Part shown: one piece after another, positions 99 through 9,468 of the stretch
How the letters are laid out: each line of letters begins with the position of its first letter
Position numbering within the stretch: position 1 is the first letter of the stretch
Origin: a virus
Lineage: Duplodnaviria > Heunggongvirae > Uroviricota > Caudoviricetes
Length of the DNA stretch: 9,468 bases
Direction: 5' to 3' (one strand)
Virus record (IMG/VR): IMGVR_UViG_2648501787_000002
The notes under the pieces: generated by a model
The model's input: the letters and a program-made list of their open reading frames with translations, nothing else
What the model was told of the DNA's origin: nothing
Databases searched by the model: none
Position numbers and translations under genes: made by a program

Positions 99-100
99 CC

Positions 101-400
101 TCAGAACTCCATCTGGATTTGTTCAGAACGCTCGGTCTTGCACACCGGGCGTTTTTTCTTTGTGATTTCATCAAGCGCATACTTAAAAGCCCTGCTAATC
201 GGGCTGATGTCTGATGCCATTCCGAAAGCACACAAGACCGAAGCAATAAATCTCCAGTCCGTTCTGCTTATCTTCGATTCATGACAGCCAATCATCTTTG
301 CCAGACCGCGCTGTGTAAGCGTTGACAGGTTAATGAGTAAATATGTTTCTGCGCGATCAACGTCGCGCTGTGATAGTTTGCTGTAACTTGTTTGTTCCAT
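101..400 (-). CDS. cII: CII-like transcriptional activator (lysogeny establishment); C-terminal end lambda-like, N-terminal two thirds divergent
   Basis: 99-aa ORF directly downstream of cro on the same strand. C-terminus KKRPVCKTERSEQIQMEF closely matches my recollection of lambda CII (NKKRPAATERSEQIQMEF). Central helix-turn-helix-like segment TQRGLAKMIGCHESKISR. Same size class as lambda CII. Confidence 0.75.
   Translation of the reverse strand: MEQTSYSKLSQRDVDRAETYLLINLSTLTQRGLAKMIGCHESKISRTDWRFIASVLCAFGMASDISPISRAFKYALDEITKKKRPVCKTERSEQIQMEF
129..160 (+). terminator. Rho-independent terminator of an oop-like antisense RNA, inside the 3' end of cII
   Basis: Stem cgctcggt / accgggcg (8 bp, one G-U wobble), loop cttgcac, then tttttt. 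Flanking sequence matches my recollection of the lambda oop RNA 3' region (CAGAACUCCAUCUGGAUUUGUUCAGAACGCUCGG...GGGCGUUUUUU). Confidence 0.5.
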
Positions 401-485
401 TTCTTAAGATTTCCAGTAGTGAATAGTTAGTTGAAAGGTATGCGTGGAAACGCATATGGCCTTAGTTGGTCAGATATCTTGGGAC

Positions 486-500
486 TCGCTTTGTCAGCGA
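486..500 (-). promoter_or_regulatory. nutR boxB-like RNA hairpin (N-utilisation site), with a possible boxA at about 518..531
   Basis: Minus-strand RNA reads UCGCUGACAAAGCGA: 5-bp stem with GACAA loop, just downstream of the cro stop. Same loop as the hairpin at 2678..2692 downstream of pL, with a compensatory change in the outer stem pair. Upstream CGCUAUUUUCACAA resembles boxA (CGCUCUUA). Confidence 0.6.
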
Positions 501-538
501 CGTAGGACGAATGTCCATTGTGAAAATAGCGGTGTTAC

Positions 539-748
<210 letters not shown>

Positions 749-763
749 TTAGTACATGCAACC

Positions 764-1553
<790 letters not shown>

Positions 1554-1560
1554 CACGTAA

Positions 1561-1998
1561 ATGATTAAAGAACGTATTTCTTATATCATTCCGATTGCGA
1601 TGGATGAAGGCAACCCAGTAACTCCAGTTCTTATCTATGAAATGGATAAAGACTCCCATGAAGTGGATCTATCATTTGGCGCTTTTTTTATCGGCCTTAA
1701 GGCTACAAAAAAATATTCCATAGGCATTGAGGTTTTCAATGCTCAAGAAATACCGATACCAATTGACACAAAACTGTACTCCAACCATAAGTTTTTTACG
1801 GTAGCAGAAGCCAACGATGGAGAAACCATCGTATCAACTTCTATGAGAATTAACTTCCCAAGGGTGAAAATTATCAAGCCTGGGATATTCGAAGTTAGAG
1901 CATCTCTGGTTAATCCTGATAAAGGCGAAGTAATTGATGTAAAAAGTTCGTTTTTTGACGTGAAGATAACAGGATCAGTTCGCGATGAGTTTAGATAA
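1561..1998 (+). CDS. Hypothetical soluble protein, first gene of a two-gene cargo module in the rexA-rexB slot
   Basis: 145-aa ORF starting 8 nt after the cI stop on the same strand. No recognisable resemblance to RexA or any family I know. Appears more AT-rich than cI. Overlaps the next ORF by 14 nt. Confidence 0.6.
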   Translation: MIKERISYIIPIAMDEGNPVTPVLIYEMDKDSHEVDLSFGAFFIGLKATKKYSIGIEVFNAQEIPIPIDTKLYSNHKFFTVAEANDGETIVSTSMRINFPRVKIIKPGIFEVRASLVNPDKGEVIDVKSSFFDVKITGSVRDEFR

Positions 1999-2356
1999 CA
2001 AGGTTGCTCAGCTTCGTCCAAATCAAAACATATCTCGCCCAATTGGACACTATTCCACTGATGATGCATACTCACGGCATGGTGGAGGAAACGGCGGAGG
2101 TAACATGCTTGAGGCTAGAGTTGCAAAGCTAGAGTCTGATGTTGAATACATCAAGCGCGATCTCGCTGAAGTAAAGTCAGATATAAAATCTGTAGATTCT
2201 CGTCTGTCAGGTATTGAGACAAGCATTAGCTCAGCAAAAATCACCATCAAGGCATCTGCGGTCGTTGTCAGTTTCGTGTTCGCATTTTGCGCCTACATTT
2301 TTGGAAGTTATGTTTCCAAAATCCTTGATGCCTTAAACGGACTCGTTCTTAAGTAA
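1985..2356 (+). CDS. Hypothetical small membrane protein: Gly-rich linker, coiled-coil segment and one C-terminal transmembrane helix
   Basis: 123-aa ORF with GGGNGGGN linker, heptad-like LEARVAKLESDVEYIKRDLAEVKSDIKSVDSRL, and hydrophobic stretch ASAVVVSFVFAFCAYIFGSYV. AGGAT lies 9 nt upstream of the ATG. Followed by a strong terminator. Not RexB-like (RexB is polytopic). Confidence 0.6.
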   Translation: MSLDNKVAQLRPNQNISRPIGHYSTDDAYSRHGGGNGGGNMLEARVAKLESDVEYIKRDLAEVKSDIKSVDSRLSGIETSISSAKITIKASAVVVSFVFAFCAYIFGSYVSKILDALNGLVLK

Positions 2357-2361
2357 CACAC

Positions 2362-2389
2362 AACCCGGCCTCAGCGCCGGGTTTTCTTT
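2362..2389 (+). terminator. Rho-independent terminator ending the cI-cargo (pRM) transcript
   Basis: Stem cccggc / gccggg (6 bp, extendable by two A-T pairs), loop ctcagc, then ttttcttt. Confidence 0.7.
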
Positions 2390-2546
2390 GCCTCACGATC
2401 CCCTTCACCCAATAACACATAACCAATTGTATTTATTTGAAAATTAATAGATACAACTCACTAAACATCGCAATTCAGATCTCTCGATCACCTCCCAAGC
2501 CACACCCCCCTGCAAAAAAATAAATCTATATAAAAAACATACAGAT

Positions 2547-2609
2547 AACCATCTGCGGTGATAAATTATCTCTGGCGGTGTTGACATAAATACCACTGGC
2601 GGTGATACT
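2547..2609 (+). promoter_or_regulatory. Left operator/promoter: oL3 (2547..2563), oL2 (2567..2583), oL1 (2591..2607); pL -35 TTGACA (2581..2586), -10 GATACT (2604..2609)
   Basis: Sequence ...ACATACAGATAACCATCTGCGGTGATAAATTATCTCTGGCGGTGTTGACATAAATACCACTGGCGGTGATACT matches lambda oL/pL as I recall it. Lambda similarity ends a few bases downstream of the -10. Confidence 0.9.
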
Positions 2610-2677
2610 AAACACATCAGCAGGACGCACTACTCACCAGGGCGGTGAATATACAACGATTCGAATATGAATCTACG

Positions 2678-2692
2678 GCGCTGACAAAGCGC
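2678..2692 (+). promoter_or_regulatory. nutL boxB-like RNA hairpin
   Basis: GCGCUGACAAAGCGC: 5-bp stem with GACAA loop, about 65 nt downstream of the expected pL start. Matches the P22-type boxB as I recall it and pairs with the site at 486..500. Confidence 0.65.
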
Positions 2693-2857
2693 AATAACCA
2701 AAGTGAACTTTGGGGTGTGGTGAAGGGTTCATGGACGGGAATATGTCGCACGTAAAGCGGCGAGGCCTGCGGGACTATTGCCGAATTGAAGTAGGCCGAA
2801 ACAGGTCGAAATGGGTCTCCCACCTACCACACCACCAAAGTTCATCAGGAGGTCTAT

Positions 2858-3241
2858 ATGACACGCAGAACTCAGTTCAAAGGCAATTCACGTTCTCGTC
2901 GTCGTGAGCGTTTAAAGGCAAAGGCATTAGCTAACGGCGTACTGGCCCGCGAAGAAGCAATAAGTTCAGAAGTATTACACCGCCCTACTCTAAGCAGAGC
3001 GCAGATTCAGGCTAAAGGTACTCACGAAACGCCTGAGCGCATAGAAGACGCTAAGCCAATTAAGTTCATGGCACAGGACGTGATCTGGCAACAGAAAGAA
3101 TACAGACGCAATCTGGAGCGAGCGGCCATTGTGTACGCGAATGAGTTTGGACATAAGCAACCAGAAACTGGTGTATGTCTTCCAAACGTAGCTCTTTACG
3201 CGGCAGGCTACAGGAAATCAAAACAACTGACAGCGAGATGA
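2858..3241 (+). CDS. N: N-type transcription antitermination protein, P22 gp24-like rather than lambda N
   Basis: 127-aa ORF, first gene after pL/nutL. AGGAGG lies 5 nt upstream. N-terminal arginine-rich motif (GNSRSRRRERLKAKAL). C-terminus VALYAAGYRKSKQLTAR resembles the P22 gene 24 C-terminus (VALYAAGHRKSKQITAR) as I recall it. Confidence 0.75.
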   Translation: MTRRTQFKGNSRSRRRERLKAKALANGVLAREEAISSEVLHRPTLSRAQIQAKGTHETPERIEDAKPIKFMAQDVIWQQKEYRRNLERAAIVYANEFGHKQPETGVCLPNVALYAAGYRKSKQLTAR

Positions 3242-3284
3242 CGATACCCCGCCAACTAGGGCACTAACCGACAGGAGCATGACC

Positions 3285-3422
3285 ATGAATAACGATAACG
3301 AAGCACTTAAAGAAATGATTGCGAAACTTCTTGAAGATGCCCGCCGCCTTCAGGTAGTGGAGCCAAACGCAGGGACACAATCACGCATTGATGAAGCGAT
3401 GAAATTGCTCAAAGCAGAATAA
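3285..3422 (+). CDS. Hypothetical small protein (45 aa, predicted helical)
   Basis: ATG 7 nt after AGGAG; translates to MNNDNEALKEMIAKLLEDARRLQVVEPNAGTQSRIDEAMKLLKAE. Below the ORF-track length cut-off. Sits where lambda has ral but does not resemble Ral. Confidence 0.3.
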   Translation: MNNDNEALKEMIAKLLEDARRLQVVEPNAGTQSRIDEAMKLLKAE

Positions 3423-3456
3423 GCTCAGGCAGCAAACCACTTATTTGAGGTGAGAT

Positions 3457-3708
3457 ATGGAATTTCATGAAAGTGCGATTTATGATTTTCGCGCTAACGC
3501 AAATTCAGTAAAACCACTGCCAATTGCAGTTCTTTTTAAAACAATGGGGGCGTGGGCTGTTTTATGCTTCGCCTCTGATGACACTGACGCAAGAATGGCA
3601 ATAAGCCAAGAGATGGAGATGGACCCGACAAACGATGAATTCATAATTTATGGCGCTCCATCTAATTACTTACTTGATACCTGCAACATTTACAACAAGG
3701 CTGCCTGA
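3457..3708 (+). CDS. Hypothetical protein (83 aa)
   Basis: ORF with GAGGTGA ribosome-binding site upstream, same strand as the pL operon. No recognisable family. Confidence 0.5.
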   Translation: MEFHESAIYDFRANANSVKPLPIAVLFKTMGAWAVLCFASDDTDARMAISQEMEMDPTNDEFIIYGAPSNYLLDTCNIYNKAA

Positions 3709-3766
3709 TGGTGGCCTTTATTTTTGTCCGTAAATAATTTCATGCTTATTACAATCAAGGTGATAT

Positions 3767-4216
3767 ATGGAAGAACAAGCAAACAAGATTCTCGTAGAAC
3801 TACTGCAAAAAGCCAGTAATGGAATAGACGCGGCTGTTTCATTTAGCCAGGCACAGATTCCTGATGTTGTTCATCAGTTGCTGCTATGGAATATGGTTGA
3901 CAGTCTGATTAAAACATTAATAGCCATTCTAACAATCCCACTGGTTTTCTGGTTTATGAAGAAGCAGTGCCAAAGAGTTGAGACAGGTAAAATCGGTGAT
4001 GAAGGATACTCATGTGAGAGGGGAAATCCCAAATACAGGCCGACAATGGTTTGGGATAGCAAAGGAGATATTAACCTTCTTATCGTGCCATTGGTTGGAG
4101 TTTTGACTCTGTGGGGGATTTTTATTATTGGTGTAGTAACCAATATGACTTGGTTAAAAATTTGGCTGGCCCCAAAACTTTACCTTATCGAATATGCAGC
4201 ATCATTGGTTAAGTAA
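3767..4216 (+). CDS. Membrane protein with two predicted transmembrane helices; possible superinfection-exclusion (SieB-like) protein by position
   Basis: 149-aa ORF with AGGTGA ribosome-binding site. Hydrophobic segments LIKTLIAILTIPLVFWFM and LLIVPLVGVLTLWGIFIIGVV. Lambdoid phages carry sieB/ral-type genes just downstream of N. Functional call is positional only. Confidence 0.5.
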   Translation: MEEQANKILVELLQKASNGIDAAVSFSQAQIPDVVHQLLLWNMVDSLIKTLIAILTIPLVFWFMKKQCQRVETGKIGDEGYSCERGNPKYRPTMVWDSKGDINLLIVPLVGVLTLWGIFIIGVVTNMTWLKIWLAPKLYLIEYAASLVK

Positions 4217-4404
4217 TTTCAGGCCGTATAATCGTCCTTCATTTTTGGCATAAACAACAGAATAAATACTGCACTGTGTATTCATTCCAACGAGTGAATA
4301 CACGGAGCAATGTCGCTCGTAACTAAACAGGAGCCGACTTGTTCTGATTATTGGAAATCTTCTTTGCCCTCCAATGTGAGGGCGATTTTTTTGACGGAGG
4401 AATT

Positions 4405-4821
4405 ATGGAAATTACAGATATTCTGGTTAATCCAGATAATTACGACCGATTCAATATCTCTACTCAATCAGTTGATTTGGGTTGCGCAACTGTCAGCGCA
4501 TGGCTACTTAATGGTAAACAGTTGGATAAATGCCTTGATGCACATATGACGGTTAACAGCTTCCTTGCAGAAAAAACACACTGGCAAGATGCTGGAGGGA
4601 AATATGCTGGATGGCTTGAAAGCATGGGATTTGAATATCAATCTGATGAAGGTTGGTGGAGCCTTATAGCTGTAACGCCTGAGACAATAGAATGCTTCGT
4701 TAAATACTCAAACGACGATGACTATAAACACCAGGTGGATTCTGCGATAGAAAGATACAAAAGAAAATCGTTCAACCACGAAATATCATCAGTTCTTGAT
4801 TTCATAGAAATCTTCAAATAA
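4405..4821 (+). CDS. Hypothetical protein (138 aa)
   Basis: Probable start at ATG 4405 (GGAGG 5 nt upstream), in frame with the longer 4351 ORF in the track. No recognisable family. Confidence 0.5.
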   Translation: MEITDILVNPDNYDRFNISTQSVDLGCATVSAWLLNGKQLDKCLDAHMTVNSFLAEKTHWQDAGGKYAGWLESMGFEYQSDEGWWSLIAVTPETIECFVKYSNDDDYKHQVDSAIERYKRKSFNHEISSVLDFIEIFK

Positions 4822-4904
4822 GCCGCCAAGCGCGGCTTTACCGCATACCAATAATGCTTCACGAGAGGCATTTTCGTTATGCAATCAAATATAAGGAGTT
4901 ACCC

Positions 4905-5039
4905 ATGATGCACTTTCAGCTCGCGGGTAGCGGCGTCATGTCCGCTTTCTACCCGCACGAATCTGAATTATCACGCCGAGTTAAACAATTAATCAGAGCA
5001 GCAAAGAAACAACTGGAGGCGTTATGCGCAATGAAATAG
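4905..5039 (+). CDS. cIII: CIII-like small protein (candidate FtsH/HflB inhibitor that stabilises CII)
   Basis: Probable start at ATG 4905 (AGGAG upstream). 44 aa, MMHFQLAGSGVMSAFYPHESELSRRVKQLIRAAKKQL... Core resembles lambda CIII as I recall it (AIAGWPVAGCPSESLLERITRKLRDGWKRLI). Correct position in the pL operon. Confidence 0.5.
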   Translation: MMHFQLAGSGVMSAFYPHESELSRRVKQLIRAAKKQLEALCAMK

Positions 5040-5176
5040 CCATCAATCACCAGATGCTTCGTGCTGCACAAAACAAAGCAGTAATAGCCAGATTTATTGG
5101 TGATTCCAAAATGTGGCTTGAAGCAAATAAAGCGATGAAATCAGCTATCAACCTTCCGTGGTATCGCAGGAAATGA
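5024..5176 (+). CDS. Hypothetical small protein (50 aa), possibly Kil-like
   Basis: ATG 5024 with GGAGG upstream; overlaps the end of the cIII-like ORF. Translates to MRNEIAINHQMLRAAQNKAVIARFIGDSKMWLEANKAMKSAINLPWYRRK. Position (immediately after cIII) matches lambda kil. Similarity to Kil is from uncertain memory. Confidence 0.35.
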   Translation: MRNEIAINHQMLRAAQNKAVIARFIGDSKMWLEANKAMKSAINLPWYRRK

Positions 5177-5331
5177 GTTTTACAGATAACTGGTCAGACG
5201 AAGAATTCATTCGTCAGATGAAAGAATTAATCGGTAACGAAGGAGATATTCATGTCACTTGCAACCACAGTGAAGGAGAGCAAGTTACAGAGACGCATGT
5301 ACACGCAGAAAGCTCTCTGGTATCGCCATAA
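5173..5331 (+). CDS. Hypothetical small acidic protein (52 aa)
   Basis: ATG 5173 overlaps the stop of the preceding ORF (ATGA). Translates to MSFTDNWSDEEFIRQMKELIGNEGDIHVTCNHSEGEQVTETHVHAESSLVSP, about 11 acidic and 2 basic residues. Competes with the alternative-frame ORF 5252..5422. Confidence 0.3.
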   Translation: MSFTDNWSDEEFIRQMKELIGNEGDIHVTCNHSEGEQVTETHVHAESSLVSP

Positions 5332-5422
5332 TGGTGACCGCGAAGGAATGCGGGTATGCCTTAACTTGTCCCGAGTCGAAGTATTAAATCAGCGTTATTT
5401 CCTTGTGCCGTGTCCATTCTGA
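5252..5422 (+). CDS. Hypothetical small basic protein (56 aa), alternative frame to 5173..5331
   Basis: ATG 5252 lies 6 nt after AAGGAG. Translates to MSLATTVKESKLQRRMYTQKALWYRHNGDREGMRVCLNLSRVEVLNQRYFLVPCPF. Ends 8 nt before the annealase gene. I cannot tell which of the two overlapping frames is real, or whether both are. Confidence 0.3.
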   Translation: MSLATTVKESKLQRRMYTQKALWYRHNGDREGMRVCLNLSRVEVLNQRYFLVPCPF

Positions 5423-5430
5423 GGTGAATT

Positions 5431-6129
5431 ATGGATTTGAATAAATTCGATGAGCCATTCAGCCCCGAAGATATCGAATGGCGAATACAGCAAAGCGGTA
5501 AAACACGCGATGGCAAGGTGTGGGCTATGGTGCTGGCTTATGTCACGAACCGGGCAATCATGAAACGCCTGGACGATGTTTGCGGCAAAGCAGGATGGCG
5601 CAATGAATACCGCGATATTCCCAACAACGGCGGAGTTGAATGCGGCATATCAATCAAGATTGATTCCGAATGGGTAACCAAATGGGATGCTGCTGAAAAC
5701 ACGCAGGTAGAAGCCGTCAAAGGTGGTCGTTCCGGTGCAATGAAGCGTGCTGCCGTTCAATGGGGAATCGGTCGGTATCTGTATAACCTTGAGGAAGGTT
5801 TCGCACAAACATCTCTCGATAAAAAGCAGGGATGGCACAGGGCAAAACTGAAAGATGGAACAGGATTTTACTGGTCCCCTCCATCGCTGCCGGGATGGGC
5901 AATCCCAGCATCAGATAACAAACCATCACCAGAAAATACCAACCAGAAATCTCCATCGGTTGACTGCGAACAAATCCTGAAAGACTTCAGCGATTATGCG
6001 TCAACAGAAACTGACAAGAAAAAACTCATCGAGCGTTATCAGCGTGACTGGCAATTAATGGCTGGCAACGAGGAAGCGCAGGCTAAATGCGTTCAGGTAA
6101 TGAACATCAGAGTTAACGAACTAAAATAG
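5431..6129 (+). CDS. Single-strand annealing protein (Rad52/Erf-type recombinase) with a C-terminal extension
   Basis: 232-aa ORF with GAGGTGA ribosome-binding site. Contains AMKRAAVQWGIGRYLY, reminiscent of the Rad52 annealing-domain motif (KRALRSFGNALG in human Rad52). Immediately upstream of an SSB gene. C-terminal KKKLIERYQRDWQL region recalls P22 Erf from memory. Confidence 0.65.
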   Translation: MDLNKFDEPFSPEDIEWRIQQSGKTRDGKVWAMVLAYVTNRAIMKRLDDVCGKAGWRNEYRDIPNNGGVECGISIKIDSEWVTKWDAAENTQVEAVKGGRSGAMKRAAVQWGIGRYLYNLEEGFAQTSLDKKQGWHRAKLKDGTGFYWSPPSLPGWAIPASDNKPSPENTNQKSPSVDCEQILKDFSDYASTETDKKKLIERYQRDWQLMAGNEEAQAKCVQVMNIRVNELK

Positions 6130-6138
6130 GCGGCATAA

Positions 6139-6600
6139 ATGGCAAGCAGAGGCGTAAATAAGGTGATTATCCTTGGTCGGGTAGGACAAGACCCGGAAGT
6201 TCGATACTCACCATCAGGTACAGCGTTCGCTAACCTGACAATAGCCACGTCAGAACAATGGCGAGATAAAAATACTGGCGAGCAAAAGGAATTGACTGAA
6301 TGGCATCGTGTTGCTGTATCCGGGAAACTGGCTGAGGTCGTGGGGCAGTATGTGAAAAAAGGTGATCAGATTTATTTCGAGGGAATGCTGAGAACCAGAA
6401 AGTGGAAAGACCAGTCAGGGCAAGACCGTTACACAACCGAGGTTCATGTCGGAATTAATGGCGTGATGCAAATGCTTGGCGGCATTGGCGACAGCAAACA
6501 ACAAGCAGCCAGCAGGCAATCACAGAAGCCACAGCAGCAATCATCACCAGCACAACACAACGAACCTCCTATGAACTTCGACGATGAGATCCCATTTTAA
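6139..6600 (+). CDS. ssb: Single-stranded DNA-binding protein (SSB)
   Basis: 153-aa ORF. N-terminus [23 protein letters not shown] and [11 protein letters not shown] match E. coli SSB closely. Gln/Pro-rich linker and acidic tail NFDDEIPF (E. coli: DFDDDIPF). Confidence 0.92.
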
Positions 6601-6615
6601 TCATTGGGAGAAAAT

Positions 6616-7083
6616 ATGATCACTTGCAAAAAATGTGGAGAGAATAAACCACCTAATGGTTTTTATCCTAGAAATAAGGTGTGCAAGGAATGCACTAAAA
6701 AACGAGTAACTGAATATCAAAAAGGAATAGGAAAGCTAATACATAATAATGCTTGCAAAAAATATAACAAAAGCGAAAAGGGCAAGGTTGCATTAAGCAA
6801 AGCAAGAGAGAACTATCTGGAATCTCATCGCCAAAGACAGCAAGCAAGATGGTCAGTCAAACGGGCAATTAAATCTGGTAAGTTATGTAGACCAACAACG
6901 TGTCAGAAATGCAACAGCAAATGCCACCCAGACGCTCACCACTGCGATTACAGTAAACCTCTTGAAGTGATGTGGCTATGCAAAGCATGTCATGTTGAAT
7001 GGCACAAGCACAACAAGCCAATATATCCAGACGAGGAACCAGTAACTCTCCCCTTCCCTCGTCACGCTATTAACGCAATTTAA
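6616..7083 (+). CDS. Cys-rich zinc-binding protein with an HNH-endonuclease-like motif
   Basis: Probable start at ATG 6616 (GGGAG upstream; the track's 6604 start is a TTG). N-terminal CxxC...CxxC zinc ribbon; C-terminal CQKCNSKCHPDAHHCDYSKPLEVMWLCKACHVEWH fits an HNH pattern (H-x-D-H-H ... C-x2-C-H-x3-H). Confidence 0.5.
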   Translation: MITCKKCGENKPPNGFYPRNKVCKECTKKRVTEYQKGIGKLIHNNACKKYNKSEKGKVALSKARENYLESHRQRQQARWSVKRAIKSGKLCRPTTCQKCNSKCHPDAHHCDYSKPLEVMWLCKACHVEWHKHNKPIYPDEEPVTLPFPRHAINAI

Positions 7084-7096
7084 TCAGGAGAAAAAC

Positions 7097-7393
7097 ATGC
7101 CAGCGCCTTTGTATGGTGCGGATGACGCGCGCCGCTGTTCCGGCAATTCCGTATCGGAGGTGCTGGATAAATTCAGAAAAAACTACGATCGAATAATGTC
7201 TCTACCGCAGGAAACGAAAGAGGAAAAGGAATTTCGCCACTGTATATGGCTTGCAGAGAAAGAAGAACGCGAGCGAATTTACCAGACATCAATCCGACCA
7301 TTCCGCAAAGCCACATATACCCACTTCCCTGAATATATCGACCCGCGCCTGCGTAATTACCGCTCACGCTATGGCGCTATCAGTAATGACTGA
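7097..7393 (+). CDS. Hypothetical protein (98 aa)
   Basis: ORF with AGGAG ribosome-binding site, same strand as the operon. No recognisable family. Confidence 0.5.
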
Positions 7394-7403
7394 GGAATTT
7401 ACC

Positions 7404-7571
7404 ATGAGAGGACTTGCATACAATCCCGGCATTCTTCCGGCAGAAATGATTATTCGCCAGCGCGTAAAGCCAATGCCATCGAGAGAGGAATTGCTTAAGA
7501 GAAATTCTTTTCCGTCAGTGAATCAAAACAAATATCTGAATGCGATGTGGCGCAAAGGAGGCAACCAGTGA
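7404..7571 (+). CDS. Hypothetical small protein (55 aa)
   Basis: ATG 7404 with GAGGA upstream; in frame with the tail of track ORF 7251..7571. Its stop overlaps the next start (GTGA). Confidence 0.4.
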
Positions 7572-8374
7572 GCAAGATTGACTATCAGGTACTGCGTGCC
7601 AAGGCAGAAAAAGCAACGTGTGGTGTATGGTCGCTCGAATATGGAGAGGGCCGATTTGATGGTGATGATGCACTAATTCATCGCGAGGCTGCTGGATATA
7701 TTCCCATTTGCAGAATTGAAGGAGCGCATCCAGAAAGCGGTTTCGATGAAGATTTCCAAATGGAACAGCAGGCCAATGCTGAATTCATCGCCGCAGCCAA
7801 TCCGGCTACCGTCTTGGCGCTGCTTGGCGAGCTGGAAGCAGCAGAGAACAACCTTATTGATAGTGAATGCCATGTTGCTGAACTGGAAGAAGCGCTACGC
7901 GATAAGCAGGCGTTACTTGAAGCATCAGAAAAGCGCATAGCAGAACTGGAAGCCGAACTCGTAAGCCAAACTTACAAGTTGCCAGAATTAATCGAGGGCA
8001 TGGAAGTTTCCATTGATGTAAGCACTTGTGATGCTGATTTAGGTAATCGCTATTTCGGCACCGTCACCGAGGCGTTAGAACTTGATACTGCCAAGAATGG
8101 TTACATCCTCCTGGTTCAGGACGCAGAGCCAAACTTCGATGTAAATGGCAACTCTCCGGTAACTCCGGATGGTTGGATAAGCTGTAGTGATCGAATGCCG
8201 GATGATGGTCAGCACGTAATTATTTTATGTGATGGCGCATTCGTTCTTTATGCGCAATATCGAGACAGTGAGTTTTTTGATGTTGTCCGCAATGGTGAGG
8301 AGTTCTTCGAAACGCAGAGCCGCAATGTAACCCACTGGATGCCGCTACCGGAACCGCCGCAGGAGGTAAAGTGA
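7568..8374 (+). CDS. Ea22-like prophage protein (coiled-coil middle region, DUF551-like C-terminal domain)
   Basis: Probable GTG start at 7568, 6 nt after AAAGGAGG (track shows a longer 7547 start). N-terminus [21 protein letters not shown], central coiled coil ([47 protein letters not shown]), C-terminal [14 protein letters not shown]...HWMPLPEPP. Assignment is from memory of prophage Ead/Ea22-like proteins. Confidence 0.55.
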
Positions 8375-8658
8375 TGGACTCCTTCGCGAAATATACGATT
8401 ATTGACTGGATAGCATTCCTTCAGGTTTTGCTCATCTGGTTTTATATGGCTTACAGGAGTGGACAGTGGATTGTCAGTGTAGCCTGTAGCAGGGGATGGC
8501 GTTGGTGGAACCGAAAGAATAAAAAAGCACTGGCCTTGGATTCGTTTTACGAAGCATTCAATCTTAACAGCCTTCAGCCTGGTTCTGTCATTGTAGTCAC
8601 CACTCAAAGCGGCATGACGATACAAATTCACAAGCCAAAGGAGGAAGGTCGTGGCTAA
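8374..8658 (+). CDS. Hypothetical small protein with one predicted N-terminal transmembrane helix
   Basis: ATG 8374 lies 7 nt after AGGAGG and overlaps the upstream stop (TGATG). Hydrophobic IIDWIAFLQVLLIWFYMAY segment. Confidence 0.45.
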   Translation: MDSFAKYTIIDWIAFLQVLLIWFYMAYRSGQWIVSVACSRGWRWWNRKNKKALALDSFYEAFNLNSLQPGSVIVVTTQSGMTIQIHKPKEEGRG

Positions 8659-8932
8659 CCTGCAACTTGCCGTCAAAGGTGAATACTTCAACGCCATGAT
8701 TCGCGGGGAGAAAACGGAAGAGTATCGCCTGTGCAATGACTACTGGAATAAACGCCTCGTTAATCGTAAGTATGACCGCCTGATTATCACAAAGGGATAT
8801 CCGAAGCGCGACGATTCCAGCCGCAGAATTGACGTCCCGTATGACGGATATGAAATCAAGACAATCACACATCCGCACTTCGGCGATAAACCGGTAACGG
8901 TATTCGCGATAAAGGTGAATATCAATTGCTAA
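8651..8932 (+). CDS. Small PUA/ASCH-like (DUF3850-type) protein
   Basis: GTG start 6 nt after AGGAGG. N-terminal KGEYFNAMIRGEKTEEYR resembles the ASCH/DUF3850 signature (Y-F-x-x-I-x-x-G-x-K-T-x-E-x-R) as I recall it. Confidence 0.45.
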   Translation: MANLQLAVKGEYFNAMIRGEKTEEYRLCNDYWNKRLVNRKYDRLIITKGYPKRDDSSRRIDVPYDGYEIKTITHPHFGDKPVTVFAIKVNINC

Positions 8933-8956
8933 ATTAGTAGCATAGCATAAAGATGC

Positions 8957-8980
8957 TTGCATTAATGAAGTGTGTATAAT
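8957..8980 (+). promoter_or_regulatory. Candidate sigma70 promoter (consensus -10 TATAAT at 8975..8980; TTGCAT at 8957..8962)
   Basis: Perfect TATAAT preceded by TGTG, in an AT-rich intergenic region upstream of ORF 9046..9237. The TTGCAT element is only 12 bp upstream, so it is unlikely to be the true -35. Confidence 0.3.
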
Positions 8981-9045
8981 AACGCCTCATCAATAGTAAA
9001 CTACTGAAATAGCAAAAAAAATGCATATTAAAGAGGATTCAAAAA

Positions 9046-9237
9046 TTGAAAATGTTCATGCAAATAGACAGACGCATAGATATTAATGGCAATTCATACT
9101 TAGTTAGATGCGAAGAGAGGCCTAACGGTGAGTGGCGTGTATATGATATTGACCGTAAGATCAATATCAGCACCATGAACAAAGACACTGCCTTTGATGA
9201 ATGGAAAGCTGAAGCTAAAAAACAACATAATTCGTAA
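9046..9237 (+). CDS. Hypothetical small protein (63 aa), stand-alone moron-like gene
   Basis: TTG 9046 or ATG 9052 start downstream of AAGAGGA. Bracketed by a candidate promoter and a rho-independent terminator. No recognisable family. Confidence 0.4.
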   Translation: MKMFMQIDRRIDINGNSYLVRCEERPNGEWRVYDIDRKINISTMNKDTAFDEWKAEAKKQHNS

Positions 9238-9280
9238 AATTACAAAAACCCTAACCAATTGATGGATTTCTTTTATCTGA

Positions 9281-9305
9281 ACTCGCTACGGCGAGTTTTG
9301 TTTTA
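9281..9305 (+). terminator. Rho-independent terminator
   Basis: Stem actcgc / gcgagt (6 bp), loop tacg, then ttttgtttt. Confidence 0.65.
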
Positions 9306-9368
9306 TGGAGATGATAAATGAACTTCCGAGTTACAGGTGAATGGAATGGAGAGCCATTCAACAGGGTT

Positions 9369-9468
<100 letters not shown>

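Follow-up and report, generated by a model that had tools for sequence, protein, structure and literature searches.

A lambdoid prophage segment encodes a Sak-type annealase, an SSB, and an HNH-like protein in a probable Abc2/RecBCD-dependent recombination module

Introduction

In the published model for phage P22, the anti-RecBCD protein Abc2 binds RecC, RecBCD loses its response to Chi, and the co-opted enzyme resects DNA ends for the phage annealase (PMC9836394). Work on phage HK620 describes Abc2 as turning RecBCD into a 5'-3' exonuclease and reports that the HK620 single-stranded DNA (ssDNA)-binding protein (SSB) stimulates the HK620 annealase via the SSB C-terminal tail (PMC5928155). Here, we analyze a recombination module that probably works in this way, located in a 9,468-nucleotide (nt) stretch of viral DNA (Caudoviricetes; IMG/VR record IMGVR_UViG_2648501787_000002), the whole of which is referred to as the window. 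An earlier reading of the letters of the window (here referred to as the original prediction) flagged positions 5431 to 7083 as an annealase, an SSB, and an HNH-like zinc protein with no recognizable exonuclease and suggested that either the HNH-like protein or host nucleases might fill that gap.

A 2025 survey of 325 lambdoid phages in Genome Research recognizes an HK75 type of module, consisting of an anti-RecBCD function, an SSB, and an annealase (27 phages), and an ES18 type, which has the HK75 set plus an HNH or DnaQ-like nuclease (25 phages); it counts HNH and DnaQ-like genes as Rec-module nucleases and flags HNH genes as possibly mobile (PMC12315714). By its set of functions (anti-RecBCD, SSB, nuclease, and annealase), the window module is of the ES18 type, although the nuclease of ES18 itself, gp47, is an HNH_3 protein of unrelated sequence. 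Annealase domain shuffling and the linkage between SSB and HNH genes, both of which are considered below, are not analyzed in the survey (PMC12315714).

The window module comprises a Rad52/Sak-type annealase (5431 to 6129), an SSB (6139 to 6600), a 155-residue zinc-ribbon HNH-like (His-Me finger) protein (6616 to 7083), and Abc2 (7097 to 7393), all encoded on the plus strand. We consider it probable that this is a P22-style, Abc2/RecBCD-dependent module with its own SSB and a Sak-type annealase bearing an Erf C-terminal region, with the mechanism inferred from the P22 and HK620 work. Abc2 would bind RecC of the host RecBCD and render it Chi insensitive, and RecBCD would resect the ends and supply 3' single strands, so that no phage exonuclease would be needed. 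The phage SSB would coat the ssDNA, its acidic DDEIPF tip helping the annealase, and the annealase, with a ring-forming Sak/Rad52-type domain and the Erf C-terminal region, would pair complementary strands; annealing would serve genome circularization, concatemer formation, and recombination-dependent replication. The HNH-like gene would be an optional, compositionally foreign cassette rather than the resection nuclease. Its product is putatively a divergent His-Me finger endonuclease with a zinc ribbon; since its family directly follows SSB genes in many unrelated phages, the most likely accessory role for it is the nicking or cleavage of DNA intermediates associated with SSB.

Results and Discussion

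Relation to described modules

The module is already known and catalogued, and another copy of it changes little. The block from 5100 to 7450 was found in 245 phage records; in phage Huey, 87% of it aligns, at 98.5% identity, and its identity to HK75, mEp235, and Sf6 is ~95 to 97%, with Sf6 at ~95%. Annealase, SSB, HNH-like "endonuclease," and Abc2 genes follow one another in the same order and orientation in Sf6 (gp28-gp27-gp26-gp25) and Huey (CDS0030-0027), where the Huey annotation names them annealase, SSB, endonuclease, and abc2. The window differs from these two phages in its lambda-like immunity and IS100-bracketed ends.

The P22 gene order, c3-kil-arf-erf-abc1-abc2, provides the same operon frame, again without a phage exonuclease. 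In contrast to P22, the annealing domain in the window is of the Rad52/Sak type rather than Erf, and abc1 is absent, with the SSB and HNH-like genes in its position. The HNH-like protein was considered as a P22 Abc1 and rejected, as the two show no similarity. Abc1 and Arf genes are also absent from HK620 (PMC5928155), and they appear to be nonessential to the Abc2 class of modules. Lambda Red (exo-bet-gam) occupies the same position in the pL operon and has the same job, with an annealase acting on resected ends while RecBCD is neutralized. Unlike lambda, the window has no Exo/YqaJ or Gam in the open reading frames (ORFs) scanned and adds a phage SSB, and RecBCD would be co-opted via Abc2, according to the published model, instead of blocked.

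Abc2 and the missing exonuclease

The three ORFs that the original prediction placed at 5431 to 7083 are real, lie on the plus strand, and were correctly identified as a Rad52-type annealase, an SSB, and an HNH-like zinc protein. The extent given for the module was too short, however, since a fourth gene, starting 13 nt past the stop codon of the HNH-like gene, was missed. The product of this gene (7097 to 7393) matches Pfam PF11043 (E = 4.1e-61; 203.6 bits), PHROG 656, and, in PDB 8B1T, the chain of P22 Abc2 (E = 1.8e-55). It is 91.8% identical to P22 Abc2 by tblastn and 97% identical to Sf6 gp25. An IRPFRK segment is identical between the window protein and the 8B1T chain in the alignment; the proline within this segment has been placed in the PpiB site (PMC9836394). 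On these matches, we assign the gene as a P22 Abc2 orthologue that is part of the module.

As the original prediction had stated, no exonuclease was recognizable: no window ORF that was scanned against PHROGs or Pfam matched the Exo, YqaJ, or RecE families, and Gam was not found in the ORFs scanned. No exonuclease is annotated in the early-left regions fetched for Huey, Sf6, and HK75 either. Considering that Abc2 co-opts RecBCD in the published model, a "missing exonuclease" is the expected state of such modules, and Abc2 acting with RecBCD would explain why none is encoded by the phage here. Published work on Abc2 and RecBCD already answers the apparent puzzle of an annealase without an exonuclease, and dependence on host nucleases, one of the two options originally raised, is supported by analogy through the Abc2 matches.

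An Erf-type C-terminal region on a Rad52/Sak-type annealase

Residues 4 to 136 of the annealase match the Pfam family Rad52_Rad22 (PF04098; E = 4.8e-26, 91.9 bits against a cutoff of 20.3), and the protein matches PHROG 1097 (1.4e-128). From its membership in the Sak/Rad52 group, it is predicted to form ring oligomers and to anneal ssDNA. The ~95 residues past the Rad52_Rad22 domain make up the sizeable C-terminal extension that had been pointed out originally. From the N terminus, the protein consists of a Rad52/Sak-type domain (approximately amino acids [aa] 1 to 140), a linker rich in Pro and Ser, and a region resembling the C-terminal part of P22 Erf. In a BLASTP comparison in which only the C-terminal 76 residues align, aa 157 to 232 are 63% identical to residues 134 to 202 of P22 Erf (E = 3e-29); within this match, the C-terminal domain proper covers about aa 176 to 232 (nt 5956 to 6129). 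No match to the Erf annealing domain (PF04404) was detected in the annealase at an E value of ≤0.01. Erf is represented in the protein only by its C-terminal region.

The two parts of the protein can be followed separately through phage genomes. The Rad52/Sak-type N-terminal domain is present in 160 phage records by tblastn and is 61.7% identical to the Sak protein of Lactococcus phage Q33 (tblastn, residues 6 to 138, 95% of the domain, E = 5e-52). The lactococcal Sak proteins (ul36/Q33 family) share the Rad52_Rad22 domain, but the match ends at residue 138, short of the Erf-type region, and the host range and neighboring genes of these phages are unlike those of the window. At 62% identity to lactococcal Sak, positions 5431 to 5850 are unusually close for phages whose hosts are Gram negative on one side and Gram positive on the other. 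A protein homologue search with the C-terminal region gave short fragments only, and fusion partners were taken from tblastn against phage genomes; in this search, 118 phage records had the Erf-type C-terminal region, among them those of P22-type, ES18, Sf6, and HK75 phages. These alignments identify the extension as a shared C-terminal module that is found on two annealing domains between which no sequence similarity is detectable. The 2025 survey mentions "shuffling of partner interaction domains," a remark with which the shared Erf C-terminal region is consistent (PMC12315714). By analogy with Red-beta, the region may bind SSB. Its occurrence on two annealing domains suggests a portable partner-binding region that would be worth mapping for the design of recombineering tools.

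The candidate partner, the SSB, matches Pfam PF00436 (E = 1.2e-36; 125.4 bits against a cutoff of 26), TIGR00621 (166 bits; cutoff, 53.95), and PHROG 44, and it ends in NFDDEIPF, a canonical acidic tip. In HK75 and mEp235, the SSB (4040 to 4546 in both L003 and L004, the loci of these phages in our set) continues for 15 residues (APVTLPFPRHAIHAI) beyond a DDDIPF tip, so that the C-terminal phenylalanine, which is normally recognized by bacterial SSB partners, becomes internal. These extended SSBs might differ in their choice of binding partners.

A cassette slot between ssb and abc2

The HNH-like gene lies 15 nt past ssb and 13 nt ahead of abc2. The 97% identical module of HK75 shares the annealase, SSB, and Abc2 but has nothing between ssb and abc2. 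The slot is occupied in ES18 (gp47) and 103203_sal5 (gp33) by Pfam HNH_3 proteins that are unrelated to the window protein and in mEp235 (gp30) by a DnaQ/Rv2179c-like 3'-5' exonuclease, as is also the case, by annotation, for epsilon34 gp34; in some genomes, an HNH-like gene and a DnaQ-like gene apparently occur together. The ssb-abc2 junction is a cassette slot with variable contents: it may be empty, or it may hold an HNH gene of either of two unrelated types, a DnaQ-like exonuclease gene, or apparently a pair of HNH-like and DnaQ-like genes.

The contents of this slot bear directly on the other option originally raised, namely, that the annealase has the HNH-like zinc protein as its dedicated nuclease partner, which would replace lambda Exo and make the ssDNA. 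The gene does sit within the module, between ssb and abc2, and its HNH-type residues are invariant (see below). Relatives carry HNH_3 or DnaQ-like nucleases in the same slot, as if it were a "nuclease position," and the survey counts these among the Rec-module nucleases (PMC12315714). Yet the 27 HK75-type phages do without any gene there, relatives fill it with unrelated nucleases, and Abc2 is present, with resection via RecBCD proposed in published work. The HNH-like homologues, moreover, co-occur with YqaJ exonucleases, and their nearest structural relatives are nickases, restriction enzymes, and endonuclease VII. HNH enzymes are known as endonucleases or nickases and not as processive 5'-3' exonucleases, which also counts against a replacement for Exo. 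An Exo-type role for the HNH-like protein is thus poorly supported, and we regard it as highly improbable.

The 3' boundary of the cassette can be located. At the 3' end of the HNH-like ORF, 45 nt (7039 to 7083, plus strand) encode PVTLPFPRHAINAI and the stop codon, just ahead of the abc2 ribosome-binding site. A DNA alignment with translations showed that the same sequence forms the C-terminal extension of the SSB in HK75 and mEp235 (...DFDDDIPF-APVTLPFPRHAIHAI). Because the same 45 nt are found in both contexts, the stretch ahead of the abc2 ribosome-binding site appears to be read by whichever ORF precedes it, and we take it to mark the cassette boundary. In the HNH-like protein, the corresponding tail has a predicted local distance difference test score (pLDDT) of <50 and is missing from distant family members. 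Base composition sets the gene apart as well: its GC fraction is 0.40, falling to 0.36 over the first two-thirds with a third-codon-position value (GC3) of 0.28, versus 0.48 to 0.49 for its neighbors. The window and Sf6 alleles are ~50% identical over the first two-thirds, before the HH motif, and nearly identical after it, and the last ~30 nt of ssb hold a cluster of substitutions that separates cassette-plus from cassette-minus genomes. The tail, the GC contrast, and the allele mosaic point to a mosaic, recently exchanged cassette.

These same features keep alive the possibility that the gene is a selfish, homing-type endonuclease cassette whose insertion site was the 3' end of ssb and which operates outside the recombination pathway. 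Such an element would account for the presence/absence polymorphism (the window and Huey versus HK75, in 97% identical modules), the foreign composition, and the substitution cluster and 45-nt tail captured at the junction; it would also fit the HNH_3 genes, which Pfam links to homing endonucleases, in the same slot of ES18 and 103203_sal5 and the warning in the survey that HNH genes may be mobile (PMC12315714). The slot, however, also accepts an enzyme of a nonhoming kind, a DnaQ-like exonuclease, and the HNH-like family is very large with a single architecture. In many phages, homologues directly follow SSBs of several PHROG families (bacterial-type, 7364/18154, 9002, and Gp2.5-like), alongside varied annealases, a pattern that target-site homing would hardly give. 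We therefore judge a purely selfish element to be unlikely and an SSB-linked role more likely.

Three chimeric ORFs in public Escherichia coli records (P0016, P0017, and P0024) also involve this slot. Two of them consist of an SSB N terminus fused in frame to an Sf6-type C-terminal HNH domain, and in the third, an HNH-like C terminus is joined to a DnaQ-like exonuclease. All three look as if deletions or frameshifts had produced them from the ssb-abc2 slot in decaying prophages.

The HNH-like protein belongs to a large, effectively unannotated family

The ORF of the HNH-like protein (6604 to 7083) encodes 12 cysteines and opens at a TTG codon; translation probably starts at the ATG at 6616, just downstream of a GGAG, to give the same 155-aa product as the Huey coding sequence and cluster P0001. 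The original prediction had proposed profile searches for this protein and the annealase. These placed the annealase securely, as described above, but were divided on the HNH-like protein, which matches the PHROG 2340 "endonuclease" family (4e-40) and has no match in Pfam or NCBIfam; nothing significant was found among PDB sequences, whether it was searched singly or as a profile.

A homologue search returned 53 homologues, and motifs were assessed in an alignment of 32 of them, with identities down to 29%. A CxxC...HH...CxxCH...H motif is invariant across the 32 sequences, so the HNH-like reading survives the possibility, raised at the outset, that the motif might not be conserved. The invariant positions are C100, C103, H112, H113, D115, Y116, W124, C126, H130, and H134; position 129 is Cys or His, and the N-terminal CxxC...CxxC is nearly invariant. 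No Asn corresponding to the canonical one of H-N-H is conserved between H113 and C126, the interval in which the invariant D115-Y116 lies. The AlphaFold model (pLDDT, 88) consists of an N-terminal Cys4 zinc ribbon, four helices, and a strand-strand-helix at residues 110 to 136, which corresponds to a predicted beta-beta-alpha-metal unit with a second Cys4 site and the invariant histidines.

A Foldseek search of the full model against the PDB gave no significant match, probably due to the helical insert, with Hpy99I ranked first and PacI fourth. Among predicted viral structures (BFVD), there were 14 matches at an E value of ≤0.001; "Recombination endonuclease VII" scored 4e-6 and "HNHc domain" proteins scored 5.5e-5, a restriction endonuclease of the HNH type was also among them, and NinG ranked lower. 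The closest structures are those of nickases, restriction enzymes, and endonuclease VII. Compared with Gme HNHE (PDB 4h9d), phage gamma HNHE, PacI, and T4 endonuclease VII, the window protein lacks the conserved Asn. It also differs from zinc-ribbon HNH nickases, PacI, and endonuclease VII in the short loop from HH to the second CxxC and in the four-helix insert between the ribbon and the HNH domain. In genomic setting, the window gene adjoins ssb, whereas the compared HNH nickase genes adjoin terminase. When C-terminal domains were isolated, 4 of 10 aligned over all or nearly all of the Pfam HNH model below threshold; the best PF01844 score was 17.9 bits against a cutoff of 21.4, and the window protein reached only HNH_5 at an E value of 0.63. 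HNH families are absent from the Pfam families most often matched by the 32 homologues.

The missing Asn and the lack of any Pfam HNH match reaching threshold would be expected if the protein were a noncatalytic zinc finger, that is, a DNA- or protein-binding factor (an adaptor for SSB or the annealase, or a regulator) built on an HNH-like scaffold. We consider this improbable. Besides the eight zinc-binding cysteines, His112, His113, Asp115, His130, and His134 are invariant in the 32 sequences, a catalytic His-Me pattern rather than a structural zinc site alone, and both the significant BFVD matches to HNHc and endonuclease VII proteins and the subthreshold coverage of the Pfam HNH model speak against a noncatalytic protein. 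We accordingly file the Cys-rich protein as a divergent zinc-ribbon His-Me finger (HNH-like) protein outside Pfam coverage, with putative catalytic activity.

A profile search of 1.84 billion representative proteins yielded 58,965 matches at an E value of ≤0.001 and 32,717 at ≤1e-10. The family thus amounts to ~59,000 clusters at 50% identity at the former threshold and keeps a single architecture. A Pfam scan of 10 of the longer top matches found no HNH model and only weak matches to the Stc1 zinc ribbon. From these searches, the family appears to be both large and effectively unannotated. Staphylococcal phages typically have the gene order annealase-ssb-HNHc_6-rep (PMC8093625); HNHc_6 (PF16784) gave a chance-level match to one homologue (E = 0.26), and the arrangement is analogous at most.

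The HNH-like family often follows SSB genes

To describe the genomic setting of the family, we used the best 80 of 572 confirmed IMG/VR matches, a nonrandom sample that includes near-duplicate loci; 74 of these had enough upstream sequence. A bacterial-type SSB was found directly upstream in 30 of the 74 loci using local phmmer and jackhmmer. When 20 remaining upstream neighbors were compared with PHROGs, 11 matched SSB families (7364, 18154, 14578, and 9002) or were Gp2.5-like, two of them at E values near 1e-3. The upstream neighbors in two further loci (L034 and L036) were inferred to be SSBs from their N-terminal likeness to those of L032 and L035. In total, an SSB from one of several PHROG families lies directly upstream of the HNH-like homologue in at least 43 of the 74 viral loci.

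Eight distant homologues were also inspected singly: five directly follow an SSB gene, one directly follows a Sak4 (AAA_24) gene, and the annealases nearby are of the Rad52, Erf, or Sak4 type. Distant homologues also occur in modules that have a YqaJ (lambda-Exo-type) exonuclease, as in Vibrio phage vB_VpP_1 and locus L011. In vB_VpP_1 (L009; 3425 to 4965), a VRR_NUC nuclease gene comes immediately after the SSB-HNH-like pair, which adjoins a divergent Erf-YqaJ pair, giving three nucleases in one recombination cluster.

Target-site homing does not readily account for a pairing with SSBs of several PHROG families; the pairing suggests a function tied to SSB-coated DNA. One possible form of such a function, which we put forward tentatively and at somewhat less than even chances, is that the family and phage SSBs of several families form a conserved two-gene unit in which an SSB-directed endonuclease nicks or cleaves SSB-coated replication or recombination intermediates. 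If so, SSB-directed nicking could, for example, start recombination-dependent or rolling-circle replication, and it would constitute a distinct, uncharacterized accessory step of phage recombination modules. A large HNH-like family that travels with SSB genes also offers a testable lead on the role of the "HNH in Rec modules" proteins.

Several points weigh against the account given here of an Abc2/RecBCD-dependent module with an SSB-linked accessory endonuclease. The effect of Abc2 on purified RecBCD is subtle, and loading of the annealase by Abc2-RecBCD has been proposed rather than demonstrated (PMC9836394). The Erf-type C-terminal region is not strictly tied to Abc2; we considered such a tie and rejected it, since phage EhrS_49, which serves as prototype for a class of modules listed with no anti-RecBCD function, has a weak copy of the region and since Abc2 partners a RecA-like Sak4 in HK620. 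The count of 43 of 74 is a lower bound from low-sensitivity searches of the nonrandom sample with its near-duplicates. With the canonical Asn absent and no Pfam HNH threshold reached, the HNH-like protein is a putative nuclease. Finally, the account of this locus comes from sequence and model analysis, and the IS100 ends that flank the phage segment mean that this copy may sit in a defective prophage.

Setting of the module in the window

ORF listing and family scans place the window within a lambdoid prophage, of which it spans the immunity and early-left region, bracketed by insertion sequence DNA. Positions 1 to 98 and 9371 to 9468 form a perfect 98-nt inverted repeat that corresponds to the 3' end of istB of IS100kyp (IS21 family), so the 9.27-kb phage segment is flanked by two inverted copies of IS100. 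This is either a composite-transposon-like arrangement or the result of a contig breaking in repeats. E. coli prophage matches are confined to about 99 to 9370 (starting at ~99 to 108 and stopping at 9370), and the window is present in E. coli genomes in pieces only, such as in a prophage of strain E2348/69, with no genome carrying 80% of it in one place.

It is therefore conceivable that the module in this particular copy is an inactive relic, a prophage fragment between inverted IS100 copies that is no longer expressed or used, and both the perfect terminal repeat and the scattered E. coli matches would fit such a fate. On the other hand, the ORFs from cII to the ea genes are all intact and free of frameshifts relative to Huey, Sf6, and HK75; the segment retains cI, cro, N, and the pL operon; and contig ends in insertion sequence repeats may be a mere assembly effect. 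We consider a relic rather doubtful.

The genes of the window are arranged as follows. A cII-like gene (101 to 400) and a cro-like gene (539 to 739), both on the minus strand, are followed by a LexA-family, cI-type repressor gene (840 to 1553), whose product we take, by eye, to be lambda-cI-like. An N-like antiterminator gene (2858 to 3241), several small genes with no assigned function, cIII (4854 to 5039), and kil (5024 to 5176) come next, and an Ead/Ea22-DUF551 protein is encoded beyond abc2 (7547 to 8374). The module itself has the order cIII-kil-two small ORFs-annealase-SSB-HNH-like-Abc2. Because the genes of the flagged block lie on one strand with spacings of 9 to 15 nt and promoter- and terminator-like sites are not in excess, the block reads as a single stretch of the pL operon. 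No Chi sites were found in the window versus 0.2 expected, a weak and uninformative result at such a length, and a 41-nt direct repeat (D1; two copies, 73% identity) looks like chance.

The two small ORFs ahead of the annealase are on the plus strand and overlap by 80 nt in different frames. The first (5158 to 5331; 57 aa) falls in PHROG 2123 and is a homologue of HK022 gp42 and Sf6 gp30, and the second (5252 to 5422; 56 aa) falls in PHROG 1723 and is like Sf6 gp29; both PHROGs carry the label "recombinase." They sit where P22 has arf, to which neither shows convincing similarity; identification of the 57-aa ORF as P22 Arf was rejected, as the pairwise match covers 7 residues only (E = 0.014). 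Both ORFs are annotated in Sf6 and mEp235. At the position of lambda rexA and rexB, directly after the repressor gene, two genes (1561 to 2356) encode unrelated proteins of PHROGs 5893 and 6136 with no assigned function, the second of which has a hydrophobic segment at its C terminus.

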